A stretch of 64,000 bases of DNA from Nitrospira sp. GTDB taxonomy: Bacteria > Nitrospirota > Nitrospiria > Nitrospirales > Nitrospiraceae. Location of the stretch: the NCBI GenBank assembly GCA_016788465.1, contig JAEURV010000186.1:988-64987 (forward strand). The letters run 5' to 3'. The notes beneath the pieces were generated by a model. It was not told where the DNA came from, ran no database searches, and worked only from the letters and a program-made list of their open reading frames with translations. Positions within the stretch are counted from its first letter, which is position 1. Each line of letters begins with the position of its first letter. Below, piece by piece: positions 18,894 to 51,403 of the stretch. The translations under genes and the position numbers were made by a program.

Positions 18894-18960
18894 AACGTAG
18901 AAGGTTCAGAAGTTTTTCAGGACGTTTCACCTTTTACCTCGTACGTCTACCTTCGTTCCC

Positions 18961-20298: not shown

Positions 20299-20299
20299 T

Positions 20300-24233: not shown

Positions 24234-24361
24234 AGAGACATGGTGTAGGCACGGATGAGGGAGCTGCATCATGACCGAGTATCCTGATGCCGCCTCAGCT
24301 GCGTAGGCAGGAAGGTTATCCGGTGGCACCTGTCACATCTTTTGTTGCCTCTTCTTCCGCC

Positions 24362-27260: not shown

Positions 27261-27431
27261 GGGCAAAAGAAGAGGGTTTTCTCTTCACTGTAAGTGAGAG
27301 GGCGAAGCTGTGTCCGTCAGGCGCGTGACATGCGAAACTCGCGGGAGTGGAGTGAAAAGCAGGATAGGCGGAATCTCATCTCCGTTGAATTATATGGTTC
27401 GCGCTCGGCCTGCTTGTCTAGCAGCGACCCT

Positions 27432-27782: not shown

Positions 27783-27861
27783 AAAGCTGACGCTAAAGTG
27801 AGTGTGAAGGAGCAACTCGCGCCAATCTCGCTTCTCTTGTGAGTCGCGCATCGGATGCATC

Positions 27862-34132: not shown

Positions 34133-34133
34133 G

Positions 34134-35141: not shown

Positions 35142-35168
35142 TACGCCTGGCATACGAAGGATGAAACG

Positions 35169-35768
35169 ATGACAAAAGAAGAGTTGATTGAATTCGAGGA
35201 AGAAGTCGCCGCGTTATTCAACGCAGGGAAAATTCGCGCCCCCATTCATCTGTACTATGGGAATGAGGAGGCCATCATTGAAGTCTTTCGCGCCATTCGA
35301 GCTCAGGACTGGGTGTTCTGCTCATGGCGGTCTCATTATCAGTGTTTGCTGAAGGGAGTACCGAAGGATCGCGTCCGGGACGAGATCTTGGCCGGACGGT
35401 CGATCTCGCTGTGCTTCCCGGAGCAGCGGGTCTTCTCTTCAGCGATTGTCGGCGGAGTGTTACCGATTGCCGTCGGAGCAGCCATGTCGATTCAGCAGCG
35501 TGGGGAGGACGCCATGGTCTACTGCTTCATGGGAGATATGACGGCTGAGACGGGTATTGCGCATGAATCAATCAAATACAGCCGAAACCACCAGTTGCCG
35601 ATCCGCTTTATCATCGAGGACAACGCAAAATCGGTCTGTACCGATACCAGGGAGACGTGGAATCAGCCTCGACTGACTTATGAAGAAGTCAATGATGAGT
35701 ACATCAGCTACTACCGCTACGAAACGAAGTATCCGCATGCTGGTGCCGGCGTGCGGGTCCAGTTTTAA
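35169..35768 (+). CDS. Thiamine-diphosphate-dependent enzyme, short E1 alpha-like subunit
   Basis: 199 aa. The ThDP-binding GD-x(~27)-N motif is FMGDMTAETGIAHESIKYSRNHQLPIRFIIEDN. Confidence 0.7.
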   Translation: MTKEELIEFEEEVAALFNAGKIRAPIHLYYGNEEAIIEVFRAIRAQDWVFCSWRSHYQCLLKGVPKDRVRDEILAGRSISLCFPEQRVFSSAIVGGVLPIAVGAAMSIQQRGEDAMVYCFMGDMTAETGIAHESIKYSRNHQLPIRFIIEDNAKSVCTDTRETWNQPRLTYEEVNDEYISYYRYETKYPHAGAGVRVQF

Positions 35769-35776
35769 GGTGACCT

Positions 35777-36313
35777 ATGAAATATTTTGATGAGCTGAAG
35801 CGGTCGATGAATTTCTTGGCACAAGATCCACGGACGGTGTTTCTGGGCCAGGCGGTGGCCGTTCCGGGAACAGCCATGAGTAACACGCTCAAGGAAGTGC
35901 CCTCTCATCGATTGATCGAGCTGCCGGTGGCCGAGGAAATGCAAATGGGGATGACGACGGGCCTTGCCCTCACCGGACTTATACCCGTCAGTGTCTTCCC
36001 GAGATGGAATTTTCTGATCTTGGCGATCAACCAGTTGGTCAATCACCTGGACAAGATTCACCTGATGTCCAACGGAGGATACAAGACGAAGGCCATTATC
36101 CGGACGGGAATCGGATCTCAGCGTCCGCTCCATCCGCAGCATCAGCATGTCGGAGACTTTACGGAGGCGATCCGCATGATGTGCAGCACGGTAGAAATCA
36201 TTCGTTTGGAAGAACCCAAAGATGTCTTCCCGGCCTATGAGTGGGCGTTGCAGCGTGAGGATGGACACAGCACGATCATTGTTGAGTACGGAGACTATTA
36301 CAACGAGAAATAA
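35777..36313 (+). CDS. Short E1 beta-like (transketolase pyrimidine-binding domain) subunit
   Basis: 178 aa with RLIELPVAEEMQMGMTTGLALTG (catalytic Glu region). It lacks the C-terminal domain of canonical E1 beta. Sits 8 nt after the alpha-like gene. Confidence 0.7.
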   Translation: MKYFDELKRSMNFLAQDPRTVFLGQAVAVPGTAMSNTLKEVPSHRLIELPVAEEMQMGMTTGLALTGLIPVSVFPRWNFLILAINQLVNHLDKIHLMSNGGYKTKAIIRTGIGSQRPLHPQHQHVGDFTEAIRMMCSTVEIIRLEEPKDVFPAYEWALQREDGHSTIIVEYGDYYNEK

Positions 36314-36469
36314 CAGGGCAGTGAAACAACCAGCCGGATTCGTTCTCGTAGTACTAGTCAGTACCTAAAATCTTAGCAGGGCGGCATTCTTGAGCCGTCT
36401 AAATTGTCCGACCACAACTTGGAGTGGCGAAATTGGATCGATGGCTCCCATGAATGTGAATAGGTCGTT

Positions 36470-37639
36470 ATGAAATATCCTCTTATGCGGAACAATATTC
36501 TCCGGGAAGATTTGGATGCGGTGATTGAGCATCTCAAACAGGACGATCCGATCTTGACGCACGGTCGAAATGTGCGGGACTTTGAGTCTGAGTGGTCCGC
36601 CTGGTTGGGTGTGAAACACAGTGTGTTCGTCAATTCCGGCGCATCTGCGAATCTCTTGACGATGGCGATTCTGAAAATCCGCTATCCCGAAGGTGGTGAA
36701 GTGATCGTTCCGCCGTTGGCCTGGGTTTCCGATATCGCCTCGGTGCTGCAGAATGGATTCACTCCCGTTTTCGTCGACATCGATCCCAGGACATTGGGGA
36801 TGGATCCAGCAAAAATTTGTGCTGCCATCACGGAGCGGACCCGTGCAGTATTCTTGACTCATGTGCAAGGGTTCGATGCGCTGGACGATAGGTTACTGAA
36901 AGAGTTGCAGCAGCGAAGAGTTCCGCTGATCGAGGACGTCTGTGAGTCTCATGGGGCCACGCATCAAGGACGGAAATTGGGAAGTTTCGGCTGGATATCA
37001 AATTTCTCCTTCTACTACGCGCACCATATGAGCACGATCGAGGGGGGCATGATTTGCACGGACGACCCGGAGGTGTATCAGCAGGTACGCATGTTGCGCT
37101 CGCACGGGATGGTTCGAGAGGCCAGCGATCCGGCGGTGCTTGCGGCCTATCGCTCGGAGAATCCTGAGTTGAATCCTGATTTCATCTTTGCGTTTCCCGC
37201 GTATAACACACGTAATACGGAAATCGGGGGTATCCTTGGCCGAAGCCAGCTCAAGCGTCTGGATCGCAACGTGAGGCGACGGACGGACAATCTGTTACGG
37301 TTTATGAAACAGCTTGATTCAAGCAAGTACCGAACTGATTTCAAGATGGAAGGGTCCAGTAACTATGCGTTCAACCTTATCTTGAAACGTCCGGACAATG
37401 CCTTGGTTGAGCGTCTGATGAATGTGATGCGTGAGGCGGGGATCGAGTTCCGACGAGGAAGTGCGGGTGGTGGTAATCAGATTCGCCAGCCGTATCTGAA
37501 AGGTGTTGTTCCCAAGGACCACCATCTGGAGTTCCCCGAAACCGAACATATCCACTTTTATGGTTTCTACATCGGCAACTATCCGGATTTGCGCGATGAA
37601 GAGATCGATGGACTGTGCAAGGTTTTGAATTCCGCATGA
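36470..37639 (+). CDS. PLP/PMP-dependent sugar 3-dehydratase of the DegT family, ColD/E1-like (His replaces the Schiff-base Lys)
   Basis: 389 aa. NFSFYYAHHMSTIEGGMICTDDPEVY aligns with ColD FSSFYSHHIATMEGGCIVTDDEEIY as I recall it. His186 (nt 37025..37027) occupies the Lys position of DegT aminotransferases. Confidence 0.8.
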   Translation: MKYPLMRNNILREDLDAVIEHLKQDDPILTHGRNVRDFESEWSAWLGVKHSVFVNSGASANLLTMAILKIRYPEGGEVIVPPLAWVSDIASVLQNGFTPVFVDIDPRTLGMDPAKICAAITERTRAVFLTHVQGFDALDDRLLKELQQRRVPLIEDVCESHGATHQGRKLGSFGWISNFSFYYAHHMSTIEGGMICTDDPEVYQQVRMLRSHGMVREASDPAVLAAYRSENPELNPDFIFAFPAYNTRNTEIGGILGRSQLKRLDRNVRRRTDNLLRFMKQLDSSKYRTDFKMEGSSNYAFNLILKRPDNALVERLMNVMREAGIEFRRGSAGGGNQIRQPYLKGVVPKDHHLEFPETEHIHFYGFYIGNYPDLRDEEIDGLCKVLNSA

Positions 37640-37646
37640 GAGTGCC

Positions 37647-38390
37647 ATGCCTTCGGCCGTGATTCTGGCTGGTGGGCTGGGGACTAGGCTGCGGAGCGTC
37701 GTGTCCGACCTTCCGAAGCCCATGGCTCCCATCCGTGGCCGCCCTTTTCTTGAACATCAGCTCGATTATTGGATCAACCAGGGGATCAGCCGGTTTGTGT
37801 TGTCCGTAGGATACCGGCATGAAGCTATTACCGGTCATTTCGGGTCTCGCTATAAAGGTATTCACCTTGAATATGCCGTCGAGGAACAACCGTTAGGAAC
37901 CGGTGGCGGATTGTTGATGGCTGCGGAGAAACTCGACCCGGATAAGCCGTTCTTGCTTTTGAACGGCGATACGTACTTTGAGGCCGACTGGACGGTGTTG
38001 GATGCCTTTGCCATGGAGCATGGGGCCGACTGGTGTTTTTCATTGTTCAGGACGAGTGAGAAGGGGCGATACATGGGCATCGAGATGTCCGCTCAGGGAC
38101 GGATCACCTTGTTGAAGTCCGGGGTTGAGCAGGGGCCTCGCCTTGCCAATGGGGGAGTGTATTGGGTGCATCCGCGTGCGTTGACTGGGGCTGGCAGATT
38201 GGGTGCAAAGTTATCGTTAGAAGACGATCTGTTTCCCCAGGCGCTCGCGGCCGGACACCGATTATTGGGGATAGAGTTTCGTGGGACCTTTATCGATATC
38301 GGGGTCCCTGATGATTATCATCGGGCATCAAGCTTGTTGGTGGGTAGGGACGATAGGACCGCACAATCAACGGAGAGGACACGACGATGA
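37647..38390 (+). CDS. Sugar-1-phosphate nucleotidyltransferase, D-glycero-D-manno-heptose 1-phosphate guanylyltransferase (HddC)-like
   Basis: AVILAGGLGTRLRSVVSDLPKPMAPIRGRPFLEHQLDYW, SVGYRHE and EEQPLGTGGG, a pattern close to HddC-type enzymes. Confidence 0.8.
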   Translation: MPSAVILAGGLGTRLRSVVSDLPKPMAPIRGRPFLEHQLDYWINQGISRFVLSVGYRHEAITGHFGSRYKGIHLEYAVEEQPLGTGGGLLMAAEKLDPDKPFLLLNGDTYFEADWTVLDAFAMEHGADWCFSLFRTSEKGRYMGIEMSAQGRITLLKSGVEQGPRLANGGVYWVHPRALTGAGRLGAKLSLEDDLFPQALAAGHRLLGIEFRGTFIDIGVPDDYHRASSLLVGRDDRTAQSTERTRR

Positions 38391-39325
38391 GCTATAACAT
38401 TCTTGTGACCGGTGGCGCAGGCTATCTCGGCTCCACTCTGGTGCCGGACCTTCTGCAGCAAGGCCACAACGTCACGGTGCTGGATAACTTCATGTACAAG
38501 CAGGCCAGTCTGAATCATGTGTGCCATCATCCCAAGTTTTCAGTCGTAAAAGGTGATATCCGTATCGAAAGCGTGATGGCTCCGTTGATCAAGAAGGCCG
38601 ATGTCGTGATTCCACTAGCCGCGCTGGTGGGGGCGCCGATGTGCAGCCAAGACCCGGTGGGGGCAACCACCGTCAACCATGATGCCATTTTGTTGATGCT
38701 GAAGCTGTTGTCGAAGCAGCAGATGGTCCTCATGCCTACCACCAACAGCGCCTACGGTACCGGGGATAAGGATAACTTTTGTACGGAAGAGTCTCCGTTG
38801 AATCCCATTTCCCTCTACGCCAAGGAGAAGGTCGGCATTGAAAAGGAGCTGATGCAGCGGGAAAACGCCATCAGTTTTCGTTTGGCGACCGTATTCGGGA
38901 TGTCGCCGCGCATGCGGATCGATTTATTGGTGAATGATTTCACCTATCGGGCGGTGTACGATCGCTTCGTGGTGCTGTTCGAGAGTTCCTTTAAACGAAA
39001 TTATGTTCACGTGCGTGATATCTCACGCGTCTTTCAGCACGGCATCGAACATTTCGGCAAGATGAAAGGTCAGATCTACAATGTCGGTCTGTCCGACGCC
39101 AATGTGTCGAAAAGAGAGTTGTGCGAGCATATCCAGAAACAGGTTCCTGACTTTGTGTTCGTTGATGCTCCGGTCGGTAAGGATCCGGATCAACGCAACT
39201 ATATTGTGTCCAACGCCAAAATCGAATCGACCGGGTTCAAGCCGATCTACGCACTCGATGCAGGCATCAGTGACCTGATTAAGGGTTACACGATGATCAA
39301 GAACACACGCTATGGGAATGTGTGA
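38387..39325 (+). CDS. NAD-dependent epimerase/dehydratase (extended SDR)
   Basis: ILVTGGAGYLGS Rossmann motif and catalytic YAKEK (YxxxK). ATGA overlap with the upstream gene. Confidence 0.8.
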   Translation: MSYNILVTGGAGYLGSTLVPDLLQQGHNVTVLDNFMYKQASLNHVCHHPKFSVVKGDIRIESVMAPLIKKADVVIPLAALVGAPMCSQDPVGATTVNHDAILLMLKLLSKQQMVLMPTTNSAYGTGDKDNFCTEESPLNPISLYAKEKVGIEKELMQRENAISFRLATVFGMSPRMRIDLLVNDFTYRAVYDRFVVLFESSFKRNYVHVRDISRVFQHGIEHFGKMKGQIYNVGLSDANVSKRELCEHIQKQVPDFVFVDAPVGKDPDQRNYIVSNAKIESTGFKPIYALDAGISDLIKGYTMIKNTRYGNV

Positions 39326-39391
39326 GGGAAGGCTCTAAAAGCGTGAGGCTCTCTCACCGGGTGCTGGAATGATCCTCTTCTCAATCACGGA

Positions 39392-40192
39392 ATGATGCTG
39401 ATTGTTAGACTGTTACATAATGTATATCGTTACCAGTCGATGATCCTGGCTCTTGCAGGTCGAGAGTTACAGAGCCGATACGTGGGGACATTGGGTGGAA
39501 TTCTATGGACGTTCGCACATCCGTTGGCGATCATCACCATCTTTTATTTCGTATTTGCGTTGGGGTTTCGGTCGCAAGGCCCCGATGGCGCTCCCTTCAT
39601 GCTCTGGTTTGTGTGTGGATTGGTTCCCTGGTTTTTTTTTAATGAAACATTGTTGGCTGCGACCGATTCAATTACGCGACATGCTCATTTAATAAAAAAA
39701 ACTGTCTTTCCTTCTGAGATTCTTCCGATGGTGAATATTACTGCGGGTCTTATTCCTCATGCGATCTTTATGCTCATTGTGGCAGGCTTGCTGGTGTGGT
39801 TTGAGGTTTCATTGCTGGCAGGTAGATTGCTGGTCGTCTATTTTCTTCTCTGTACGTGTGTCTTACTTATTGGTCTCAGTTGGCTGCTCTCTGCAATACA
39901 GGTTTTTTATCGTGATGTTTCACATGCCGTATCGATTTTGCTTAACTTGTGGTTCTGGTCGACCCCGATTGTCTGGTCATCGGACATGATACCGGCGGAG
40001 TATCGTGGGTTATTGTTCTATAATCCTATTTACTACATCACTGAAGGGTATCGAGGCTCGTTGGTCTTCGGTGAGCTCGTGTGGCCGAGTGCAGCTCACA
40101 CAGTCTACTTCTGGTTCATTGTGATTGCGATGTTTCTAGTCGGCGCGTACGTATTCAGCAGATTGAAACCAGAATTCGCCGATGTAATGTAG
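39392..40192 (+). CDS. wzm: ABC-2-type polysaccharide export permease
   Basis: 266 aa with six hydrophobic helices. The N-terminal LAGRELQSRYVGTLGGILWTFAHPL signature is typical of Wzm/TagG permeases. Confidence 0.85.
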   Translation: MMLIVRLLHNVYRYQSMILALAGRELQSRYVGTLGGILWTFAHPLAIITIFYFVFALGFRSQGPDGAPFMLWFVCGLVPWFFFNETLLAATDSITRHAHLIKKTVFPSEILPMVNITAGLIPHAIFMLIVAGLLVWFEVSLLAGRLLVVYFLLCTCVLLIGLSWLLSAIQVFYRDVSHAVSILLNLWFWSTPIVWSSDMIPAEYRGLLFYNPIYYITEGYRGSLVFGELVWPSAAHTVYFWFIVIAMFLVGAYVFSRLKPEFADVM

Positions 40193-40200
40193 TTCTTCCC

Positions 40201-41553
40201 ATGCGGCCTTCTCCCGTCGTTCAGGTTCAGAGCGTATCTAAGAAGTTCAGACTCTTCGCTTCTCCGAAGGAGCGTCTTTTTGAAGCACTACACCCGTTTC
40301 GCAAACAGTATCATCACGAGTTTTGGGCGCTACGTAATATTTCCTTTGAGGTTCGGCCAGGGGAAGTTGTCGGTATTCTAGGGAGAAATGGATCCGGGAA
40401 GTCAACCTTGTTGCAGATCGTTTGCGGGGTGATGCAGCCAACGAACGGTGAAGCTCGGGTTGATGGACGAATTGCTGCTTTGCTTGAACTCGGCGCTGGA
40501 TTCAATCCGGAGTTTACAGGGAGAGACAATGTCATTTTGAACGGCGCGATTATGGGATTCTCTCGAAAGGAGATGCTGCGACGGTTGCCAGAGATCGAGG
40601 CCTTTGCTGACATCGGAGAGTTTTTTGACCAACCGGTCAAAACCTACTCATCTGGAATGTTCGTGCGGGTCGCATTTGCAGCCGCAATTCACGTCGACCC
40701 GGATCTCTTGGTGGTGGATGAAGCTCTCGCTGTCGGTGATGCAAAGTTTCAACGCAAATGTCTGCTGCAACTCGAGAAAATTCGCGCAAACGGTGCGGCC
40801 ATTCTCTTTGTCTCCCATAGTTTGGAGACCATTACAAGTCTTTGCAGTCGAGCGATTATCTTGGAAAATGGATCACTCGTTTGCGATGGCCAACCGAAGG
40901 TGGTCGCTGAACAATATCTGACTCTTCTCTTTTCCGAGTCACGAGTGGAGAAACGGAGTGGGTCTTTGAAAGGAGAGCCTGCTTCGGTATCAGATGGTCA
41001 ATATCTTGAGGCAGTCCAATCAACTGGCGGTTCAGTTTGTATTGACGAGTCTATATGGACGGATGTCCCGATTTCTCAAAGGTTTGGGTACAACCGTCAT
41101 GAAATCCGTACAACGAATGGCGGTGCAACCATCATCGACTATGTGATGATGGCAAATGGCCGTACTGACTTCCCGTGCATTGTTTCAGGAACCGCGTTGA
41201 CGATTTTCGTGAAGGCTCAGTTTATGGAGAGTGTCACACAGCCCATTGTCGGGTTTGATTTAAAAACGGACAAAGGAGTTACCATTATATCTTCCAATAC
41301 CTTTCTGTCTCAGACTCCGCTGCGGCATGCTCAGTATGGTGAGACAAGAATTTATCAGCTTGACCTAAGTACACCGTTGAATGAAGGCGATTACTTTATT
41401 GATCTAGGAATAGCTAAGTACGATGGGAGCCAAGGAGGAGCCGTCTTGGACGTCCGACGGTCTATTATACATCTGGTAATCAGTCCTGTGTCGGAGAAGA
41501 GATTCAATGGAATCGTGGATATTGGATTTAGGTTTGGAGAGATCCCTCGATAA
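40201..41553 (+). CDS. wzt: Polysaccharide export ABC ATPase with C-terminal glycan-terminus-binding (Wzt_C-like) beta-sandwich domain
   Basis: Start at ATG 40201 (MRPSPVVQVQSVSKKF). Walker A GRNGSGKST, signature YSSGMFVRVAFA, Walker B LLVVDEALAVGD. A further ~200 aa beta-rich extension (TIIDYVMM..TIFVKAQF..YFIDLGIAKY..IHLVISP) follows. Confidence 0.85.
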   Translation: MRPSPVVQVQSVSKKFRLFASPKERLFEALHPFRKQYHHEFWALRNISFEVRPGEVVGILGRNGSGKSTLLQIVCGVMQPTNGEARVDGRIAALLELGAGFNPEFTGRDNVILNGAIMGFSRKEMLRRLPEIEAFADIGEFFDQPVKTYSSGMFVRVAFAAAIHVDPDLLVVDEALAVGDAKFQRKCLLQLEKIRANGAAILFVSHSLETITSLCSRAIILENGSLVCDGQPKVVAEQYLTLLFSESRVEKRSGSLKGEPASVSDGQYLEAVQSTGGSVCIDESIWTDVPISQRFGYNRHEIRTTNGGATIIDYVMMANGRTDFPCIVSGTALTIFVKAQFMESVTQPIVGFDLKTDKGVTIISSNTFLSQTPLRHAQYGETRIYQLDLSTPLNEGDYFIDLGIAKYDGSQGGAVLDVRRSIIHLVISPVSEKRFNGIVDIGFRFGEIPR

Positions 41554-42871
41554 CACGAGGATCGCCATAGAGCCGCTGTATTCACTTGCCGAAGCATTAG
41601 AGGCAGGAAAGCCTTATTTTGGCCGACGACTATCGGCTTTTCAGAGTCCTCCCATACGGTATGCTTTATTGGCTGGTGTGGCTATTGACGCACTGAAAGG
41701 GAAGCCAAAAATTAGGGTGTTGGAGATAGGTTCGTGGGCGGGAGCATCCTCGATTACATTGGGAACGGTGATTCGCACCCTCGGCATTGCGGATGGTGTC
41801 ATTACTTGCGTCGATCCGTGGGAGCCATATTTTGTGCCGGGAGATGCAGCCATGCACTACAAGAGCATGAACGTCGCGGCTGGGACAGGGGCTATCCAAC
41901 AGTTGTTTCATCACAATATTAGGGCTTGTGGGCTTGTAGGTATGGTCGAGGTCATAAAAGCTGGGGCGCAGGATGTTCTACCATCGTTTGCAGCTGAGTC
42001 ATTCGACTTCATCTATATCGATGGGTCGCATAAGAAAGAAGATGTTTCCCATGACATTGAACAAGCCATGCGGCTGGTCCGTGACGGGGGGACTATTTGT
42101 GGAGACGACTTGGAGTTAGTCAAGGGGGAGATCGATGAGGCCACGCATCGGGACGCGGTGGCACGGAACGTTGATTATGTGGCTGACCCGCGAACAGGAG
42201 CTTCCTATCATCCTGGCGTCACTGAGGCAGTTTGTTCTGCGTTCGTTGACCTCTGGCATGACAAAGGCCTGTGGTGTGTGAAGCGTTCTGGTGGCGAATG
42301 GCATGCTCCTGTCATGCCTATCAAGGATTTAGATATTCCAGTGCACTTGCAACATACAGCGGAAATTCCCTATGGTGTATTTAAGGGGCATGAATTGTTT
42401 CAATTGGGAGAACGGTTCGTGGCCTATCCCGTCAGTCAGCCGCTCTGGTTTCAAAATCGCCTTGTGCAGCGATCACTTGAGGACTTGGTTCTGATGATTG
42501 ACGCGATTGATTGTATAGACCGGCGCAGGGCATCTCGGGAAACAGGTTGTCCGAAGCTAATCGTCGAGGGCTATTGCGGTTTCAATATCGTTCAATACAA
42601 TAACGGTTGGTATGGTTTCGATCAAGCACTAGGCCCGACAGATATCAGAACTCTTGTCGAGTCAGAGATAGAAGTCATGAAGTGTAAGGGAAGTTGCGTG
42701 TCTGGCATAAGTATTGACGATGTTAAGATGGAGGTCCTTCGTATCGTAATGGAGCAACAGGACAGAAAACTTTCAGTTTTCCAGACAGAGGTAGGTGATC
42801 TTAATCAGGCATTTCGGGAGGTGTCCTCAAAAGCTGATTTCGATTCGAGCCTTCACCGAAAAAGAGCTTAA
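41507..42871 (+). CDS. Class I SAM-dependent methyltransferase (Methyltransf_24-like) with two copies of the island-specific C-terminal module
   Basis: IRVLEIGSWAGASSITL and FDFIYIDGSHKKEDVSHDIE. The C-terminal ~165 aa carry GVFKGHELFQLGERFVAYP and GFNIVQYNNGWYGFDQALGPTDI. Overlaps the wzt end by 47 nt. Confidence 0.7.
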   Translation: MESWILDLGLERSLDNTRIAIEPLYSLAEALEAGKPYFGRRLSAFQSPPIRYALLAGVAIDALKGKPKIRVLEIGSWAGASSITLGTVIRTLGIADGVITCVDPWEPYFVPGDAAMHYKSMNVAAGTGAIQQLFHHNIRACGLVGMVEVIKAGAQDVLPSFAAESFDFIYIDGSHKKEDVSHDIEQAMRLVRDGGTICGDDLELVKGEIDEATHRDAVARNVDYVADPRTGASYHPGVTEAVCSAFVDLWHDKGLWCVKRSGGEWHAPVMPIKDLDIPVHLQHTAEIPYGVFKGHELFQLGERFVAYPVSQPLWFQNRLVQRSLEDLVLMIDAIDCIDRRRASRETGCPKLIVEGYCGFNIVQYNNGWYGFDQALGPTDIRTLVESEIEVMKCKGSCVSGISIDDVKMEVLRIVMEQQDRKLSVFQTEVGDLNQAFREVSSKADFDSSLHRKRA

Positions 42872-42874
42872 GTT

Positions 42875-44152
42875 ATGACGGCGTTTGTTCACAAGAATGC
42901 ATCACCATCCTCGCCTCGTCTGTCCATTATTCTATTGGACTGGAGCTGTCGCGAGAGGTTCACCACTCTGGATTGGCTGCTGCGGCAGGATGTGCCGAAG
43001 GATCAGTATGAGCTCATCTGGGTGGAGGTTTATGACCGTGTCGTTGATGAAGTGATGGAAAAAGCCGATGTCGTCATCACGTGCAATCAGCAAGGCATGT
43101 ATCACAAGCATGTGGGGTATAACGCCGGCCTGCTGCAGGCGCGTGGTGACTTGATCTGTGTGTGTGACAGCGATGCGGTGTTCCCTCCTAATTTTGTGCG
43201 ATCGGTACTTCACTCGTTTCACATGGAAGATGGGAGATCGGCTGTTCCGTTGGTGCTCATGCACTACGAATGGCGTACGTCTCTCCTCTATCCGGATGGG
43301 TTAATTGATACTGCGACACTCAAGGACCATGCTCGTTGGAAATGGTGGCCTCTCATCGTGAACGAGGGCGCTTGCATGACTGTGCGTAGGGCTGACGCAA
43401 TCCGGTTTGGAGGTTTTGACGAACATCCCAGTTACAAGGGGTATTTGTGCGGTCCATATGATTTGGGCTGGCGCCTGATTAATGCCGGTTGGCCGGAAGT
43501 GTGGCACGATGAGTCTGTAGCGTTGTGGCACTTTGCGCATCCTGACCCCATTGGGACGAATGGCCAGCGAGCCTCATTGAAGCAGTTGCTGGAAAAGGCC
43601 CACCCTCATATTAATGGCCATGCGTTGACGGCCGTGGAAGCGTTTTCAACGGGGCGATTCCAGCCTCTTCAGGAAAACTTAGACATCTGGAAGTTACGGA
43701 TGAAGAGTCGCCGAATCGGATCCGAACTTGAAACTCGGTATGCCGATTTGACCGGACCAGGTGGATATTCTCCCCGCGCTGTATTGTCCTTGTGGATGTC
43801 TCTGGTGAGAGAGATTGTCGGGCGGTATCTTGCGGATCGCTGGTGGAATCCTATCCGTGAGGTCTTAGTCTCCTTGATGGGACCACGCATCGCGTCAAAA
43901 CTTCGTGCCGTTATTAGAGATCACATTGCTCCGCGCAGAGTCAATCATGAGGTGGCGGCTGACCACCCGACACTGCTCTGTTCTCTACGAGGATATAACA
44001 TTGTGAAGGTTAAGAATGAGTACTATGCTGCTCCTCAGAGTGTTGGAGATCTCGATCTATCGACGGAGGAAGGAAAGGTTCACCCTGATCTACTAGTTGC
44101 TGAAGACTACAAAGTGTTGCTGGAAAAGGTCCATGTAGCATCAAGAGGATAG
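42875..44152 (+). CDS. GT2-like glycosyltransferase with C-terminal island-specific module
   Basis: LSIILLDWSCRERFTTLDWLLRQDVPKDQYELIWVE and CVCDSDAVFPPNF (GT-A/DxD-like). The C-terminus is LRGYNIVKVKNEYYAAPQSVGDLDL. Confidence 0.55.
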   Translation: MTAFVHKNASPSSPRLSIILLDWSCRERFTTLDWLLRQDVPKDQYELIWVEVYDRVVDEVMEKADVVITCNQQGMYHKHVGYNAGLLQARGDLICVCDSDAVFPPNFVRSVLHSFHMEDGRSAVPLVLMHYEWRTSLLYPDGLIDTATLKDHARWKWWPLIVNEGACMTVRRADAIRFGGFDEHPSYKGYLCGPYDLGWRLINAGWPEVWHDESVALWHFAHPDPIGTNGQRASLKQLLEKAHPHINGHALTAVEAFSTGRFQPLQENLDIWKLRMKSRRIGSELETRYADLTGPGGYSPRAVLSLWMSLVREIVGRYLADRWWNPIREVLVSLMGPRIASKLRAVIRDHIAPRRVNHEVAADHPTLLCSLRGYNIVKVKNEYYAAPQSVGDLDLSTEEGKVHPDLLVAEDYKVLLEKVHVASRG

Positions 44153-44853: not shown

Positions 44854-47800
44854 ATGGCCGATACATCCGTCGTTCTGACTCTTCAGAGAGAGCATGCAAC
44901 CACCAAGGTGGAGGGGACACGCGTCGTATTCAGTCCTCATCAATGTTTTGCCTTTGATAATGGGCCAGAGGATGTTGCCTGTCTACATGCGCTTGGGGCG
45001 CACCTCATGACATTGCCGGGCCTTGCCTTGGTCGGTTCGAAGAGATTTATCGATTACCTCCTGCGGCACGCTCCTGATCTTAGGAGTAGGATTGTCGGCA
45101 TGATTTCATATGAAAATCTACCGGAGACTCAGTATCCGCATGGCCTAGCCAGCGTCAAGCTTGGAAGCTTGCCCGTCGAAACGCAAAGCGCGTTTCTCTG
45201 TGAAACGTTGGCGTTCCCACGAATGCAAATGATGAGGCAATTGCCTCAGTCGGTTACTACTATCGATCTCACGGTGTTGGCCGACATTGCGCCCGACGTC
45301 ATTCCTGCCCGAGGCTGGACCCCGTTACCACGCAATATTTATCCAATCGACATTCCAGAGATCCAACTCAGGCAGGAACTGGATGTGGCCATTGTCGATT
45401 GTCCATCACGCAATTTATCCCTGATGCCCAATGGGTTGGGATATTTGAACAATGCGCTGAAGAAGACGTCGGTCTCTTTTCAAATTGTTGATCTCGATAT
45501 CATTTCCTATCATCGGTTTCATGTTCATCGACTGTTCGATATGGGTGGCTGCATCTCGTTACCGGGAGATTTAGTTTTACCGGAGGATCCTTGGCAGGCA
45601 GAGCACTACGATCTTTGGACGGCAACTGGTGGAGGAGCTTCGGGCTCAACGGGGCGCAACGAAGTATTAGAGTTCTTCAGACCGGTCATCGACGAGACGA
45701 TAGCAGCGTTGGTTGCAGCGCGACCAAAAGTTCTGGGGCTCTCTATCCAAGGATGCAATGAGGCTGCGGCGCGCGAGGTTGCGCTTGGAGTGAAGGCTCA
45801 ATTGCCGGATATCATGATCGTGGTGGGTGGGTTCAGTTGCTACAATGCGGATGTCGGGCGCCGCGCATTCCCAGAATGCGACTACATGTGCATCGGTGAA
45901 TCTGATCTCACTGCTGGTCCATTATTAGAAGCATTGGCCAGAGGCGAGCGACCTTTCAATCAGCCTGGTGTACTGTCTCGCTTTGATACGCCCGAATATT
46001 CTTATATCCCCGCACCCATGATTCATAATCTTGATCAGATCGAATTCCCTAAATACGAATGGTGCGATCTGAATGTGTACAGAAACTTCAATGACTACCA
46101 GCTGACGCCCATTATTGCCAGCCGTGGTTGTCGCTGGTCCCGCTGCACGTTCTGCGCTGAACGGTTCTATTGGCGCATTCGCACGAAAGAGAATTTTGTT
46201 GATGAGCTGGAGTGGTTGGTCGGACAGGGCTGCCATCTGTTCATGTTTAACGAGAGCGATCTCGGCGGCATGCCTGAGCGTGTCATGGAAATCTGTGATG
46301 AGATTATTCGTCGTGGACTCCATCGCAAGGTAAAGCTCACCGGCCAATTGCGGGTCAATAAGAAACAAAACCGAGCCTTCTTTGAAAAGCTGCGAGAAGC
46401 CAATTTCGTTGCGCTGCGGTTCGGCATCGACGCTTTTTCTGAGCGCACGTTGCGATTGCAAATGAAGGGGTACACGGTCGATATGATTACCCAGAACCTG
46501 AAGGACTGCTGGGAGGTAGGAATCTTCACTGAGGTCAACTGGGTCATTGGTGTTCCCGGAGAAACCGATCAAGACGTCGAGGAGGGAATCGAGCTTATCC
46601 TGAAGAACCGAAAGTATATCGGACGTCTGGCAAACATCAATCCCCTCATCTTAGTAAACGGCAGCGTTTACTGGATTGATCCGGCATCTCACAACATTGT
46701 GCTCAAGGAACCCAAGGAAATCATGTATGAGAAGTATCCGCGAGCCCTTCCTGCAGATCAGTGGTACAGCACCGATCCCTATATCGATGCACAGGTTCGC
46801 AAAGAGCGCTTTGAGCGTATTGTGCTTGCGCTGCACGACGCGGGATTTCACGTTGGAGCATGGGCCAACCGTGTGATTGAGGACGTGAAACTCAATCGTG
46901 ACAAGGCACGGACCGGGACGTCTGGCACGTCGGTCAGTGCCGGTGAGTTTGAAATTGCTGGCGGAGACAAGGTCCATACTGCTCCCATAGATTCCGAAGA
47001 ACAAACGGCGCTAGAGACTTCAAGCCAGCGAGCGCCTATCACCGACCTTAAACCATCACGGACTACCAAGTTACTGCCGATGCTTCAAGAAGTGGAGATT
47101 GAATCGGAGGATGCAGCTAGACCTTCCGCAGAGCCACCGTTGTTTCAGGTTGCTGGTCAAGCGCCCCGCATGGTGCGTAGAACGGAAACGCATACGATTA
47201 TTTTCTACAATGGCTGGTACTACGGCGTTCCCGCCGCATTAGACAGTATTGACGTGACAAGTCCAGAATCAACCGCAATCGCAGGGCTTCTTCGGTACCC
47301 AACTGAAGAGGAAGTCGTTGCAGCTATAGAGGAGAGCGCCAGATGGGCGAATTCCCGCGGCCAATACGATGATCAGAAGAAACAGCGAACGTCCGGATCC
47401 TACATGCGAGCGGATAGTGTTGGTGAAATGTCTGCCCCCGTCGCGACCGTCACCAAGCCGCGTATTCTGCGGTTCGGCAAGATGTATATCGCCGTGGATC
47501 AGGATGCTCTGAAGGATCCGTTCAGCCGGAGGTCATTTGCCCGAAGAAGAGCTAATGGACAGAAACAGAACAATCGTGATGTCAGTGTCTGGCGACGAAT
47601 GATTGAATTGCTGCCTCCATCTTTTGAAGAGGAGTTGCGTCGTCTCATCCGTCAGGAACGTATTACTAGGGGGAACGGAGCGCACTTAAGCGATCTACAA
47701 CTCGCTGTTATGCTGCCGCGTGCTGTTGCCAAGGCGTATATCAAAGAGCCACTCAGACGTAGTATGCACTTTCTGTCTGGTCGAGGCACCGGTAATGAAT

Positions 47801-48333
47801 CCAGGGTGGGGGTAGACGTGGAAGGAGAAGATTTCTCCATCGTGTCTGTCGTAACGAAGAATGCTCAACCGGAATTGTTGTGGACTATCGGGAATTACAA
47901 TCTCGTGAGGTTTGACGGCCTATTCTACGGGGTTCCGCATGGAGCCTACGTGGAATGGGATTCGGGCTTAATCGCTTCGGTTCCCGGCATGTTGGTCGGT
48001 GACAGCATTGCCGAAGTGGATACTATGATGCGGAAACTTAGAGGGGAAGTGGGTGAGATATCTGTTGCTACAAGCGATGGAGGTTCCCACGCATCGGCTT
48101 TTACGAAAAAACCAATCTTGCTTCGCAGTATGCCGGAGGAAGGGTACGACGTGATCTCATATGAGGGGTGGATCTACGGCATGCCGCATGCTTTAGGACC
48201 TATTGATCTGACCGAGATTGACGTTTTGGAGATGCCGGGTGTTATTCGTGATGTTTCTCGGGATGCGGTAGAAAATGAGATTCTTGCTCTGGCTAGTAAC
48301 AATAACAGGTCGTGCAGTACCGTTGAAGCATGA
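44854..48333 (+). CDS. Giant multidomain B12-binding-type radical SAM protein (unknown N-domain, Rossmann-like domain, radical SAM core, and a long tail with 3-4 island-specific modules)
   Basis: ATG 44854 is preceded by GAGGTGA. VLGLSIQGCNEAAAREVALGVKAQLPDIMIVVGGFSC is B12-domain-like. The radical SAM cluster motif is SRGCRWSRCTFCAE (C-x4-C-x2-C, nt 46129..46155). Tail repeats lie at ~47167, 47455, 47872 and 48124. Confidence 0.8.
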   Translation: MADTSVVLTLQREHATTKVEGTRVVFSPHQCFAFDNGPEDVACLHALGAHLMTLPGLALVGSKRFIDYLLRHAPDLRSRIVGMISYENLPETQYPHGLASVKLGSLPVETQSAFLCETLAFPRMQMMRQLPQSVTTIDLTVLADIAPDVIPARGWTPLPRNIYPIDIPEIQLRQELDVAIVDCPSRNLSLMPNGLGYLNNALKKTSVSFQIVDLDIISYHRFHVHRLFDMGGCISLPGDLVLPEDPWQAEHYDLWTATGGGASGSTGRNEVLEFFRPVIDETIAALVAARPKVLGLSIQGCNEAAAREVALGVKAQLPDIMIVVGGFSCYNADVGRRAFPECDYMCIGESDLTAGPLLEALARGERPFNQPGVLSRFDTPEYSYIPAPMIHNLDQIEFPKYEWCDLNVYRNFNDYQLTPIIASRGCRWSRCTFCAERFYWRIRTKENFVDELEWLVGQGCHLFMFNESDLGGMPERVMEICDEIIRRGLHRKVKLTGQLRVNKKQNRAFFEKLREANFVALRFGIDAFSERTLRLQMKGYTVDMITQNLKDCWEVGIFTEVNWVIGVPGETDQDVEEGIELILKNRKYIGRLANINPLILVNGSVYWIDPASHNIVLKEPKEIMYEKYPRALPADQWYSTDPYIDAQVRKERFERIVLALHDAGFHVGAWANRVIEDVKLNRDKARTGTSGTSVSAGEFEIAGGDKVHTAPIDSEEQTALETSSQRAPITDLKPSRTTKLLPMLQEVEIESEDAARPSAEPPLFQVAGQAPRMVRRTETHTIIFYNGWYYGVPAALDSIDVTSPESTAIAGLLRYPTEEEVVAAIEESARWANSRGQYDDQKKQRTSGSYMRADSVGEMSAPVATVTKPRILRFGKMYIAVDQDALKDPFSRRSFARRRANGQKQNNRDVSVWRRMIELLPPSFEEELRRLIRQERITRGNGAHLSDLQLAVMLPRAVAKAYIKEPLRRSMHFLSGRGTGNESRVGVDVEGEDFSIVSVVTKNAQPELLWTIGNYNLVRFDGLFYGVPHGAYVEWDSGLIASVPGMLVGDSIAEVDTMMRKLRGEVGEISVATSDGGSHASAFTKKPILLRSMPEEGYDVISYEGWIYGMPHALGPIDLTEIDVLEMPGVIRDVSRDAVENEILALASNNNRSCSTVEA

Positions 48334-49202
48334 GGTTATTTCAGAAAAGCAGTTCCACGACTAGTATTTTACAGAACGCCCATCCCTCGTCTTGGCGGGA
48401 GCATCGGTTCGGTTTATCAGGATCCAGATGGGAACGGCTCAAGGGAAAGGATTTTTGGGTGACAGGTGCGGGTACTGGATATGGCCGATGCATTGCGCTT
48501 GCGCTTGCTGCAGCTGGTGCTCGGGTCTTTCTTTCAGGACGACGAGTCGAGAAATTACGTGAAACGGTGGATGAGGGTACGGCACTTGGTATTGATGTAC
48601 GACAGTGTATTGAAGTCCCAGTAGATATTCGATCGGAGGAGGATCTTGTCCGTGCAGTAAAAAATATCCAGCTTGTTACTCCGAGTCTCTATGGGCTGGT
48701 GAACAGCGCCGCCCTTCCTCAATCGGGAGAGGCTGCATTCCCGCTAACCGCTCAAAGTGGGGCCTGTTGGACGAATCTCCTGAACACAAACGTAACCGGT
48801 CAATGGCTGACGTGTAAGGCGGCCATGCCTTTATTAAGTCATGGTGATGGGTTTCGGATTCTCTTTCTGTCCTCATTCGCAGGCTGGGCGTCGACGCCTG
48901 GCTTTGGCCCATACAATATCAGTAAGTCGGCGGTCAATACGCTTGGCGTGTCTCTTGCGGCCGAGTGTGGCGTCAGATATCCCGAGAAGGATGTGCAGAT
49001 CAACGTGTTGGTGCCAGGCGAAGCACGTACTGAAATGAATCAGGGATCAACAGAGAGCCCGTATGCGGTGGTTAGCATGGTGCTGGTTTTGTTGTCGCAT
49101 CCACCGGGAGGTCCCAATGGGTATTTTTTTAGTCGGGATGGACGTCATCTCGCATTTGCCTACACTTCAGAATATCCTCGGTCTCTGTTGACTGTGCACT
49201 AA
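48330..49202 (+). CDS. Short-chain dehydrogenase/reductase (classical SDR)
   Basis: VTGAGTGYGRCIALALAAAGARV (TGxxxGxG) and YNISKSAV (YxxxK). ATGA overlap with the radical SAM gene. Confidence 0.8.
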   Translation: MRLFQKSSSTTSILQNAHPSSWREHRFGLSGSRWERLKGKDFWVTGAGTGYGRCIALALAAAGARVFLSGRRVEKLRETVDEGTALGIDVRQCIEVPVDIRSEEDLVRAVKNIQLVTPSLYGLVNSAALPQSGEAAFPLTAQSGACWTNLLNTNVTGQWLTCKAAMPLLSHGDGFRILFLSSFAGWASTPGFGPYNISKSAVNTLGVSLAAECGVRYPEKDVQINVLVPGEARTEMNQGSTESPYAVVSMVLVLLSHPPGGPNGYFFSRDGRHLAFAYTSEYPRSLLTVH

Positions 49203-49408: not shown

Positions 49409-51403
49409 ATGGCTCGACAATCTTTAAACGTCGCGATTCCTTGGAGCCTTAGTCACTATATTCCGTTGGACGGCTTCCATCCACTGTATCGCCCGTTATT
49501 CGATTATGTCCCGGATAACGTTAAGCTTTCTGCCTGGGATAATGCAAAGCTGTGCGAAAGGTTATCGAGTAACGCCTTCACTCGCAAGAGGGTATTGCAA
49601 GCAATAAAGAGAAAAGAGGACTGCTTTCATCAAGACGAGGGAAGTTCTGTCAAACGAAGGTATGAAGAATACTTCTGGCTGCCCAATCAGGTTCTCACGG
49701 CTGCGCTTGAGGGGGACTTAGAAATTCATCATACAGCTCCGTTCGCATCGCTTACGCGCCCATTTGTTCTGTGCTGTGAGTCGTTCGCACCGGTATTGTT
49801 CCCGTTTGCTCAGCAAGGGAGCGGAACAATAGAGAATGCTGAAGCAGTCAGGGAACTCTATAGAAGGATTCTTGCCAACCCTCTATGCTTGGGAATTTTT
49901 TCTCACGTGCCTGATACCTTGAAAATGCTCAGCTCGTTCTTGTCTGATCCGACTGTCGACCGCAAGCTGTTCCCCTTTGTAGGGGAGGGTGCCGCTGATA
50001 TGAATTCGGTGGTGGACGTCAGTCCAAAAGCGTCTCTCGCTCGACCGCGATTCTTATTTGTTAATTCAGCCAACCAGAATCCGGTGAATTTTTTCCATCG
50101 AGGAGGACATCTCGTCTTGCGTTTTTGGAAGGAGTTTGTCGCAAGTGGCCGTGATGGCCTTTTGATAATGCGATGTGCAAAACCGACGGACTCGAACTTG
50201 TGTGAATATGGTGTGGATGTATCATGGGCACAGACCGAGATTGGCCGGAGCATCATTTGGGATCAAGGCTATCTTGCCGGTCATGAAATGCGTGCGCTGA
50301 TGGAAAGTGCACATTTTTTTCTCCTGCCCAGTGTGTCATTACATTCCGCCTCGATCATGGAGGCTCTGAGGGTGGGTGCAATTCCGGTGGTGTCGGACAC
50401 GGTGGGTACATCCGCCTATATTACGGATGAGGAGCATGGGATTGTACTCCATGGTATGCAAAATGAGGTCTGGCAGAAAGATGAACGAACAGGGATTCTA
50501 GTCGATCAGTATGGTTGCAGGCCGGAGCTCGACCGGTGGCTTGTCGATCAAATGGTCAGGCGCATGTGTGTACTTCTAGAAGATCATGCTATGTATTGGC
50601 GCATGCGAAGCCGTGCAATTGTCCATGCGCAGAGGCGGTTTTCTGATCAGAGATTCGCCGAGCACTTCTGGAACTCTGTTTTTGATTTATTTGCAGAATT
50701 TAGAGGAATGTCCAGGATTGGTAAATCCGTTTCAGGGCCGCTCAGGCCGTTGTTGCGCGAGTGTACGATTCAGAGTGGCGAATGGGCGCGAGTATTTGAG
50801 AGTCCTACGCAACCAATGCTACGAATCAGAACGGGATATGGTACCGTCTGGGAATTGGGCGGTACACTCATTCATGCGTATGGGAATCCGTACATGCGTC
50901 TGAATGATTGGTCGGTATTGGCTCGGTACTGTACCGCCGATGCTCCAGCTACGACCTTTGCTCGAAACTTGAGTGAGCTGGGGGGGAAATACCTACACTC
51001 GCTTCAAGGAAATTCTAAAGGAGTAGGTAGCAAGTTTGTCCGATGGGTTTCACAGGCCCTTCGGCCGTTCCCATCATTCTATACCTATGCTGCTCGAATG
51101 CTAGCCCTTTATCGCCGACATGGAAGATTTAAATTCTTCAAGCCCAGGGTAGAGCCAGAGATTGAGCTAGTACGACAGGGCGTCAAAGGCTACAATGTTA
51201 TTCGCCATCGTGATCGGTTTTACGCAATCCTCCAAGGAGAAGGAGAGTTTTCCCCGGAAAAAGTCGAGGCTGGTGGGTATTCGTCTTATTATTGCGGGCA
51301 ATCTGTCGAAGAGATCATCCGAAGTATCATGATGGCTGATTCAGCTCCCAGGATTGTTTTCAACGACAATGATAGTGAGAGCGCTACCGTAGCAGTAAAG
51401 TAG
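49409..51403 (+). CDS. GT-B-fold glycosyltransferase-like protein with C-terminal extension carrying the island-specific module
   Basis: 664 aa. HFFLLPSVSLHSASIMEALRVGAIPVVSDTVGTSAYITDEEHGIVL resembles the GT1/GT4 nucleotide-sugar-binding region. The tail contains VKGYNVIRHRDRFYAILQGEGEF. Confidence 0.6.
   Translation: MARQSLNVAIPWSLSHYIPLDGFHPLYRPLFDYVPDNVKLSAWDNAKLCERLSSNAFTRKRVLQAIKRKEDCFHQDEGSSVKRRYEEYFWLPNQVLTAALEGDLEIHHTAPFASLTRPFVLCCESFAPVLFPFAQQGSGTIENAEAVRELYRRILANPLCLGIFSHVPDTLKMLSSFLSDPTVDRKLFPFVGEGAADMNSVVDVSPKASLARPRFLFVNSANQNPVNFFHRGGHLVLRFWKEFVASGRDGLLIMRCAKPTDSNLCEYGVDVSWAQTEIGRSIIWDQGYLAGHEMRALMESAHFFLLPSVSLHSASIMEALRVGAIPVVSDTVGTSAYITDEEHGIVLHGMQNEVWQKDERTGILVDQYGCRPELDRWLVDQMVRRMCVLLEDHAMYWRMRSRAIVHAQRRFSDQRFAEHFWNSVFDLFAEFRGMSRIGKSVSGPLRPLLRECTIQSGEWARVFESPTQPMLRIRTGYGTVWELGGTLIHAYGNPYMRLNDWSVLARYCTADAPATTFARNLSELGGKYLHSLQGNSKGVGSKFVRWVSQALRPFPSFYTYAARMLALYRRHGRFKFFKPRVEPEIELVRQGVKGYNVIRHRDRFYAILQGEGEFSPEKVEAGGYSSYYCGQSVEEIIRSIMMADSAPRIVFNDNDSESATVAVK

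Follow-up and report, generated by a model that had tools for sequence, protein, structure and literature searches.

Most characterized radical S-adenosylmethionine (SAM) enzymes of class B are methylases. The non-methylating member OxsB uses a CX4CX2C motif and shares three cobalamin-contact motifs with TsrM and TokK, namely, G-x-S/T-x-X in beta3, Gly-Gly in beta4, and Gly-Glu in alpha5 (Bridwell-Rabb/Li/Drennan review, PMC9204698). Additionally, Glu363 of OxsB hydrogen-bonds cobalamin, and the OxsB pathway ends with a dehydrogenase step. A Cx4Cx2C spacing is also reported for the sugar C-methylase GenD1 in a gentamicin paper, and RadicalSAM.org lists a CX4CX2C megacluster. Here, we describe a gene for a large radical SAM protein (Table 1) in a 64,000-nucleotide (nt) stretch of Nitrospira sp. 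contig JAEURV010000186.1 (positions 988 to 64,987), referred to below as the window. On balance, and as judged from sequence, we favor reading its product as a class B radical SAM enzyme that depends on cobalamin, resides in the cytoplasm, and belongs to a Nitrospira Wzm/Wzt O-antigen assembly line, to which its C-terminal tail would dock through repeated modules.

The radical SAM core was matched by Pfam Radical_SAM (PF04055) at amino acids (aa) 420 to 581 with 55.1 bits versus a cutoff of 29.5, and the NCBIfam matches were to class B radical SAM families only, all far under their cutoffs. In an alignment of 39 diverse homologues, the stretch A422-S-R-G-C-R-W-S-R-C-x-F-C-A-E-R-F-Y-W-R-I442 was invariant except for the residue between C431 and F433, so that the CX4CX2C spacing is a family trait and not an alignment artifact, a possibility that the initial annotation had raised. 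CRWSRCTFC was the sole CXnCX2C triad in the whole protein, and another Cys triad as the cluster site was therefore rejected. The same annotation had described the spacing correctly and was also right that the other radical SAM gene of the window carries a canonical CX3CX2C motif (CTFACDFC). However, the spacing is neither unusual nor new, since it is present in the OxsB crystal structure, has been reported for GenD1, and defines the RadicalSAM.org megacluster. Thus, the feature that first drew attention to this gene is ordinary, and the module and the unexplored glycan chemistry discussed below are the worthwhile leads.

The cobalamin-binding-type domain showed a comparable pattern. G295-L-S297-I-Q299, G325-G326, and G348-E349 aligned with the OxsB motifs and were invariant or at least 90% conserved among the 39 homologues, and E467 of the GGE-type motif aligned with OxsB Glu363. 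Q299 is found where OxsB has Asn186, a polar amide in both cases, whereas the methylases TsrM and TokK have a bulky Arg or Trp at this position. In an AlphaFold2 model of the whole protein (predicted template modeling score, 0.64), the Rossmann domain spanned aa 178 to 375 and the barrel aa 420 to 660, followed by two helices. By its motifs, the protein has both marks of class B, a Rossmann domain before the barrel and the motifs for base-off/His-off cobalamin. Foldseek searches with the whole model returned TsrM (1e-13), AprD4 (2e-11), and OxsB (1e-10), as well as CysS, TokK, and MgmA, with AprD4 giving the second-highest target TM-score (0.61); these matches were uninformative on the N-terminal domain and the tail because only radical SAM-type proteins were listed. 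Because the cluster triad and the GxSxQ, GG, and GE motifs align with OxsB, we read aa 1 to 690, on alignment grounds, as an OxsB-like class B radical SAM unit that includes an additional N-terminal domain and a short helical cap. The core constitutes a new, uncharacterized subfamily of a known class, the class B radical SAM enzymes with an OxsB-type motif. From its fold, motifs, partners, and context, it would be expected to depend on cobalamin and to cleave SAM to a 5'-deoxyadenosyl radical.

Further conserved positions were noted in the Rossmann domain. C301 and C329 (nt 45754-45756 and 45838-45840) were invariant and lie two and three residues past cobalamin motifs (GLSIQGC and GGFSC), and C346 was at least 90% conserved; C301 and C329 might be close to the cobalamin on its lower face or coordinate another metal. 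Additionally, a densely invariant insertion at aa 213 to 270 (nt 45490-45663; DLD..YH..H..R..D.GG ... P.DPW.AE.YD.W) was not matched by any OxsB segment in the alignment and may contribute to the substrate site. The N-terminal domain was modeled with confidence as an alpha/beta domain over aa 1 to 165 (predicted local distance difference test [pLDDT], ~90) and was retained even in distant homologues that lack the tail. Searches of Pfam, the NCBIfam families, and PDB sequences with aa 1 to 175 gave no match and PDB sequence searches with the domain nothing usable, in line with the initial annotation, which had found no recognizable family there. With this domain alone as the query, a homologue search gave nothing beyond short fragments from the same family and revealed no other architectures.

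The reading frame on the + strand is open from a GTG at 44851 or an ATG at 44854 to the stop codon at 48331-48333. A GAGG Shine-Dalgarno sequence lies 5' of the ATG and the homologues begin at the same residue; we therefore number the protein from the ATG (1159 aa). In a search of 5.8 billion proteins, more than 100 clusters covered 98 to 100% of the query at 50 to 92% identity, with full-length clusters named from Nitrospira, Chloroflexota, Methylobacter, and Bradyrhizobium, and the closest homologues were from Nitrospira metagenome-assembled genomes (MAGs) with 90 to 92% identity. A scan of one genome per species yielded 75 loci with a homologue, hosted by Nitrospira, Methylomonas, Methylomicrobium, Methylobacter, Gallionella, Rhodocyclaceae, and many Alphaproteobacteria, as well as by Acidobacteria, Planctomycetota, Myxococcota, Scalindua, and a Pseudanabaena. 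Cultured carriers include Methylomicrobium sp. wino1 (L031), Methylomonas rivi WSC-6 (L016), Desertibaculum subflavum (L038), and Hwanghaeella grinnelliae (L051). The ratio of nonsynonymous to synonymous substitution rates (dN/dS), computed for each segment versus four Nitrospira orthologues, was 0.004 to 0.04 for the cobalamin and radical SAM domains, 0.10 to 0.22 for the N-terminal domain, 0.13 to 0.21 for the linker, and 0.09 to 0.28 for the tail. Every part of the 1159-aa protein is translated and constrained, with purifying selection in all segments. Full-length conservation together with selection on each segment excludes a sequencing artifact, a frameshift, a chimera, or a gene fusion. 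The idea that the long open reading frame (ORF) results from a frameshift, an assembly chimera, or gene decay thus has a negligible probability and was already refuted by the 75 loci, the more than 100 full-length clusters, the dN/dS values below 0.3 everywhere, and the conserved three-module architecture; nothing was found in its favor, though a few loci have the core and tail as two ORFs. The genuine, unsplit ORF, a size of about twice that of typical class B enzymes, and the order of the domains (an unfamiliar N-terminal domain, a B12-like Rossmann domain, a radical SAM core, a linker, and repeats) all had been described correctly from the DNA at the outset.

Behind the core, the linker was poorly conserved in the 39-homologue alignment and predicted to be disordered; its composition (Ala, Glu, Thr, and Ser) agreed with the Ser/Thr/Glu-rich linker proposed previously, now placed at aa 668 to 767. 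Three clear repeats and a degenerate fourth also had been proposed. The three stood, with the same three module copies present in 116 of the 118 homologues with profile hits, whereas the fourth was rejected as an established feature, as aa 866 to 937 matched the module profile over a 13-column hairpin only (hhalign probability, 69%). The module, of about 60 residues, was predicted to fold as three strands and, past a short turn, a fourth short strand and a helix, and a Foldseek search of the PDB with the isolated module gave no structural relative (best E = 1). A strongly conserved stretch directly follows module 1 (aa 831 to 858, nt 47344-47427; consensus, WANSRGxYDAQxKQRAxGSYMRA), in which W831, R835, G836, Q844, and S855 were invariant and A832, D839, Q841, G848, and Y850 were at least 90% conserved; AlphaFold2 modeled it at very low confidence, and it could serve as a short linear motif for binding. 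Across the radical SAM family, the module copy number ranged from 0 to 5, and in six loci (L034, L036, L037, L048, L049, and L060) the core and tail are separate, adjacent ORFs. The tail therefore is a separable accessory, and it is non-catalytic.

The module had been called island specific, a description that failed. When 1.84 billion representatives were searched exhaustively with HMMER, using a profile of six sequences from the window, 1147 representative protein clusters were matched at an E value of <=1e-3 and 485 at <=1e-10, and a single protein had up to 13 matched stretches. No Pfam-A or NCBIfam model matched the module, and a homologue search with the module alignment gave nothing but short fragments from within the family. 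In a Pfam scan of 58 module proteins, 8 carried Methyltransf_24, 8 GT2, 5 GT1/GT4, and 6 Radical_SAM domains, 4 of the last together with SPASM; acyltransferase or nonribosomal peptide synthetase (NRPS)-type cases were single. Some module proteins consisted of repeats only, with the repeat right at the start and no obvious signal peptide, and therefore are probably cytoplasmic. Module copies also end three other proteins of the window (MT24, GT2, and GT1/GT4 like), giving four module-bearing enzymes in the cluster. Many loci with the radical SAM gene hold three to seven module-bearing ORFs (seven in L032, six in L031, and five each in L004, L006, L008, L016, and L030).

Other module proteins were seen in distinct settings. 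In two deltaproteobacterial loci (L055:6772-8355 and L080:2-922), Wzt contained one module between its ATPase domain and a C-terminal carbohydrate-binding-type region. An independent locus without this radical SAM gene (L083:1-20765) held wzm, wzt (Wzt_C), PAPS-synthesis genes (adenosine 5'-phosphosulfate [APS] kinase and ATP sulfurylase), and rSAM-SPASM genes next to five or six module-bearing proteins, including a three-copy GT2 and a four-copy repeat-only protein, which suggests that sulfated glycans are built there by module-linked enzymes. An NRPS-like protein (P0136, L084:941-4753), with AMP-binding, PP-binding, and thioesterase domains, ended in four modules.

The module consensus, YNIV.Y.G.FYGIPq.LG..DL, was kept across clusters that must make different glycans, and for this reason we favor a conserved partner (protein or membrane) rather than the glycan as its target. 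Most likely, the module serves to dock the enzymes, either mutually or to a shared, conserved partner at the membrane. The initial annotation had proposed a putative scaffold enzyme that modifies the polymer or its terminus while tethered through its modules. This fits the data, since four enzymes carry the module here and three to seven in other loci, and two Wzt proteins contain it. A wider and more speculative proposal, to which we give a low probability, is that the module is a new, widespread docking domain that unites cytoplasmic glycan enzymes (glycosyltransferases, methyltransferases, radical SAM enzymes, and other tailoring enzymes) and the Wzt ATPase in a single machine for O-antigen assembly and export, comparable to the docking domains of polyketide synthase (PKS) and NRPS lines, that the radical SAM and repeat-only proteins (with 4 to 13 copies) act as hubs, and that OxsB-like, non-methylating cobalamin radical chemistry takes place on the glycan.

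The setting of the gene is a lipopolysaccharide super-locus with an ATP-binding cassette (ABC)-transporter-dependent O-antigen pathway, in which wzm and wzt (with Wzt_C), glycosyltransferases, a WecA-type GT4, and a WaaL-type ligase were found beside lipid A/core genes. Of 45 long loci, 22 had a wzm or wzt homologue at a distance of no more than 10 kb. Two genes flank the radical SAM gene, and both partners are conserved across phyla. The upstream one, encoding a TIR-like protein, was kept in 54 of 69 evaluable loci, directly upstream in 40 of these, and in 42 of 44 close homologues (core identity of >=55%); a fusion of the two genes was sought, and the TIR-like gene was always a separate ORF. 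The downstream one encodes a short-chain dehydrogenase/reductase (SDR) and was kept in 43 of 63 evaluable loci, directly downstream in 33 and in 31 of 40 close homologues. The translational coupling that had been proposed for the SDR was borne out by the overlap of the radical SAM stop with the SDR start at 48330 (ATGA). An Arg pair after beta2 of the SDR suggests that it may use NADPH, and its PDB neighbors were generic, including aldehyde reductases. The block of GT2 with module, TIR-like gene, radical SAM gene, and SDR gene persisted in two loci (L003 and L004) that have no sugar-nucleotide genes within 10 kb.

We propose a reaction in which the reduced cluster would cleave SAM to a 5'-deoxyadenosyl radical that would take a hydrogen from a sugar-residue carbon, probably in the residue set by the neighboring module-bearing GT2. 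The substrate radical would be rearranged or oxidized to a carbonyl, with cobalamin assisting, and the translationally coupled, presumably NADPH-type SDR would reduce that carbonyl. The conserved TIR-like protein is assumed to be required as a partner, and the linker and modules would dock the enzyme to the Wzm/Wzt assembly line. Within this framework, the route by rearrangement or oxidation plus SDR reduction is our first choice, although held at less than an even chance; it is favored because the closest solved relative is the non-methylase OxsB, whose pathway likewise requires a dehydrogenase, the lower-axial residue is an amide, and the reductase is translationally coupled. Plain C-methylation, as by GenK and GenD1, is a possibility nearly as likely, because most class B enzymes are methylases.

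The same consideration lends weight to a different account of the gene, namely, a GenK/GenD1-type cobalamin-dependent radical C-methyltransferase that methylates an unactivated sugar carbon in the O-antigen or its precursor, with the SDR catalyzing a separate pathway step. The cobalamin motifs are intact, a sugar C-methylase with CX4CX2C is on record in GenD1, and the best NCBIfam match was to a C-methyltransferase subfamily (TIGR03975, 104 bits). However, all NCBIfam scores were far under the family cutoffs, the tight and often overlapping coupling to the SDR is unexplained by methylation, and the lower-axial Gln is closer to the Asn of OxsB than to the bulky Arg or Trp found in TsrM and TokK. 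We consider this account unlikely, but it is the strongest of the competitors.

The SDR also brings to mind the AprD4/AprD3 pair, in which AprD4 works without cobalamin and AprD3 is the reductase partner, the counterpart of the SDR. In an analogous scheme, a cobalamin-independent diol dehydratase would yield a keto product that the SDR reduces to a deoxy sugar; a reductase directly downstream fits dehydration followed by reduction, and AprD4 is among the best structural matches by its TM-score. The conserved GxSxQ, GG, and GE motifs and the cobalamin-contacting Glu would be needless in an enzyme without cobalamin, and the AprD4 model NF033070 gave no hit at E<=1 to this protein, whereas it matched the small radical SAM protein at 31542-33089 at 2e-18. 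Given the invariance of the cobalamin motifs and the lack of a match to the AprD4 model, such a dehydratase is improbable.

The substrate itself may be questioned. A soluble, nucleotide-activated sugar, with the tail merely holding the enzyme in a metabolon, would fit with the genes often found nearby (an HddA-like kinase, a nucleotidyltransferase, DegT, an epimerase/dehydratase, thiamine pyrophosphate [TPP] E1-like genes, and a second B12-dependent radical SAM gene), and OxsB too acts on nucleotides. Against this, the steadiest neighbors are the GT2 with module, the TIR-like gene, and the SDR gene, a trio that persists in L003 and L004 as described above, and the module otherwise is found on enzymes of the growing glycan and on Wzt. 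A nucleotide sugar as the substrate therefore appears rather doubtful, somewhat more so than the methyltransferase account.

The docked, cobalamin-dependent O-antigen enzyme remains the reading that we prefer, and several observations count against it. The Pfam B12-binding match (PF02310, aa 272 to 353) reached 29.1 bits, slightly under the cutoff of 32.1. The chemistry is drawn from remote homology (OxsB, E = 1.5e-5) and gene neighbors, and the majority of characterized class B enzymes are methylases; a methylase needs no SDR, yet the presence of an SDR does not exclude one. The SDR gene is missing in about a third of the evaluable loci, and most of the loci whose homologue is distant and tail-less lack the TIR-like gene. 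Genes for sugar-nucleotide metabolism are frequent companions (HddA-like kinase, nucleotidyltransferase, DegT, epimerase, TPP enzyme, and small B12-dependent radical SAM protein), so that the substrate could be a nucleotide sugar and not a lipid-linked glycan. As for the module, the four copies in the NRPS-like protein P0136 indicate that it is not strictly glycan specific, and Foldseek gave no informative structural relative.

Table 1. Positions of the radical SAM gene, its segments, and other features of the window
Feature	Position (nt)	Strand	Evidence or remark
Class B radical SAM gene, 1159 aa, stop included	44854..48333	+	Full-length homologues, dN/dS
N-terminal alpha/beta domain (aa 1-170), family unrecognized	44854..45363	+	pLDDT ~90; no Pfam/NCBIfam/PDB sequence match
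Cobalamin-binding-type Rossmann domain (aa 176-380)	45379..45993	+	GxSxQ, GG, GE motifs; insertion aa 213-270
Radical SAM core (aa 420-665), including GGE-type motif N466-E467-S468	46111..46848	+	PF04055, Foldseek, OxsB alignment
[4Fe-4S] cluster motif C426-RWSR-C431-TF-C434 (CX4CX2C)	46129..46155	+	Invariant; aligned to OxsB CDYSRCTFC
Ala/Glu/Thr/Ser-rich disordered linker (aa 668-767)	46855..47154	+	pLDDT 25-43; variable columns
Module copy 1 (aa 770-834)	47161..47355	+	Profile match; strand-strand-strand-helix in AlphaFold2 model
Putative degenerate module (aa 866-937), beta-hairpin then helices	47449..47664	+	13 profile columns; hairpin 869-882 in model
Module copy 2 (aa 1004-1065)	47863..48048	+	Profile match
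Module copy 3 (aa 1086-1151)	48109..48306	+	Profile match; stand-alone model pLDDT 82.6
bamA, lpxB, msbA-like ABC gene, kdtA, lpxK, GT9 heptosyltransferases (upstream) and WaaL-type ligase (far end)	8441-25396, 62202-63428		
MarR-type helix-turn-helix protein, 23S rRNA intervening-sequence protein, NusG paralogue (27862-28386)	26676-28386		Head of O-antigen region
Small B12-dependent radical SAM protein	31542-33089		Canonical CX3CX2C; best NCBIfam match HpnJ
TPP-dependent E1 alpha-like (199 aa) and beta-like (178 aa) ORFs	35169-35768, 35777-36313		
wzm (39392-40192) and wzt with Wzt_C carbohydrate-binding domain (ORF 40081-41553)	39392..41553	+	O-polysaccharide ABC exporter
Methyltransf_24 methyltransferase, one C-terminal module (nt 42548-42760)	41507..42871	+	Directly after wzt
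GT2-like glycosyltransferase, one C-terminal module (nt 43964-44143)	42875..44152	+	Frequently precedes TIR-like gene elsewhere
TIR-like (MTH538/DUF1863-type) protein, 153 aa	44185..44646	+	PF08937 at 1e-5, 1eiw at 1.5e-3
Classical SDR (TGxxxGxG, YxxxK), downstream partner	48330..49202	+	ATGA overlap with radical SAM stop (GCATGAGG)
664-aa GT1/GT4-like protein, one C-terminal module (nt 51158-51340)	49409..51403	+	

The remainder of the window is arranged in blocks. Of the three GT9 heptosyltransferase genes, two are located in 8441-25396 and one at 25551-26570, and one is fused to a HAD phosphatase. The heptosyltransferases are followed by the NusG paralogue, a NUDIX gene, a GT2 gene, and the small B12-dependent radical SAM gene. 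The NusG paralogue possibly acts as an operon antiterminator of the RfaH/LoaP type. A multi-pass membrane ORF of 485 aa without a Pfam match (28998-30455) overlaps the listed start of this GT2 gene (29882-31456) by ~570 nt. The Pfam domain of the GT2 begins at aa 194, and the true start of the gene probably is further downstream. Homologues of the small radical SAM protein (22 to 65% identity) were seen near the large one in many other loci. Its best family match, HpnJ, is proposed to contract the hopanoid sugar ring. Next are genes for an HddA-like kinase, epimerases, short TPP E1-like proteins, DegT, and a nucleotidyltransferase. The short E1-like forms were 89 to 98% conserved among Nitrospira loci and probably are functional short versions rather than fresh pseudogenes; the transketolase-like pair in a Bradyrhizobium locus (L001) measured 321 and 329 aa. 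When 34065-44152 was compared with locus L007, the epimerases and E1-like genes were 98 to 99% identical to those of Nitrospira UBA5698, wzm was 57% identical, and wzt was 50% identical. The MT24 gene with module had no homologue in other Nitrospira loci, which hold different module ORFs between wzt and GT2, and from its mosaic identity the region looks like a variable, serotype-type cassette. Past the SDR and the GT1/GT4-like gene, the last block comprises more methyltransferases and glycosyltransferases, asnB, the WecA-type GT4, and the WaaL-type ligase. A link to bradyrhizose, considered since a Bradyrhizobium MAG has a homologue, was dropped, as neither a radical SAM enzyme nor a transketolase is mentioned in the one paper on the bradyrhizose genes.

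A literature search for radical SAM enzymes in O-antigen or capsule clusters found nothing relevant, and the chemistry of radical SAM enzymes acting on lipopolysaccharide O-antigens has hardly been explored. The family is conserved, widespread, and uncharacterized, spanning nitrifiers, methanotrophs, iron oxidizers, rhizobia-like alphaproteobacteria, Acidobacteria, Planctomycetota, anammox bacteria, and cyanobacteria, and its defined partner genes make it a concrete target for a new sugar modification. The new elements are the architecture (N-terminal domain, core, linker, and three modules), the setting in an O-antigen cluster, the partner set of a TIR-like protein and an SDR, and the module family, which is uncurated and tags Wzm/Wzt-type assembly lines. 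The module may matter more than the enzyme, as several enzymes per Wzm/Wzt-type cluster, and sometimes Wzt, carry it; if docking is its true role, it would offer a direct handle on the physical coupling of cytoplasmic O-polysaccharide synthesis, tailoring, termination, and export. Likewise, OxsB-like, non-methylating cobalamin radical chemistry on a glycan, if true, would be undescribed.

The best solved sequence relative is OxsB (PDB 5UL2/5UL3/5UL4), which aligned with 26.2 bits over the cobalamin domain and part of the radical SAM domain only; a relative at this distance agrees with the initial view that no close characterized homologue exists. The two proteins share the cluster motif (sRGCdYSRCTFC in OxsB versus SRGCRWSRCTFC here), the cobalamin motifs (GxSx-amide, GG, and GE), and the GGE-type Glu at the cobalamin-contacting position. 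OxsB acts on a sugar ring, and its pathway's final dehydrogenase step may be likened to the SDR coupling seen here. However, the similarity is below the orthologue level, and the N-terminal domains have no established homology. OxsB is partnered by the HD-domain phosphohydrolase OxsA, whose gene lies alongside, whereas no OxsA-type HD-domain protein was present among the window ORFs scanned or the homologous loci inspected; the conserved partners here are a TIR-like protein and a dedicated SDR. Because of the weak score and the missing OxsA partner, we do not regard the protein as an OxsB orthologue. Additionally, OxsB belongs to a nucleoside antibiotic cluster rather than an O-antigen cluster and lacks the 490-residue linker-plus-repeat tail.

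The gentamicin sugar C-methyltransferases GenK and GenD1 likewise are class B radical SAM enzymes that act on sugar carbons, and the likeness of GenD1 is by its literature Cx4Cx2C motif only. They differ in being about half the size, in having no reported extra N-terminal domain or repeat tail, and in serving secondary metabolism. AprD4-AprD3, of apramycin C3' deoxygenation, resembles the present pair in its class-B-like fold and in the pairing of a radical enzyme with a reductase; in contrast, the family described here keeps all cobalamin motifs and is not matched by the AprD4 family model. At the level of the pathway, the WbdD-WbdA/Wzt system of the E. coli O8/O9a type follows the same logic, with Wzm and Wzt (Wzt_C) and then a methyltransferase. 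By analogy with E. coli, the MT24 methyltransferase after wzt may cap the chain, and the enzymes would have to be brought together at the cytoplasmic face of the membrane. In E. coli, the enzymes are organized by the coiled coil of WbdD, whereas in this locus an uncatalogued, repeated module of ~60 residues is spread over many enzymes.

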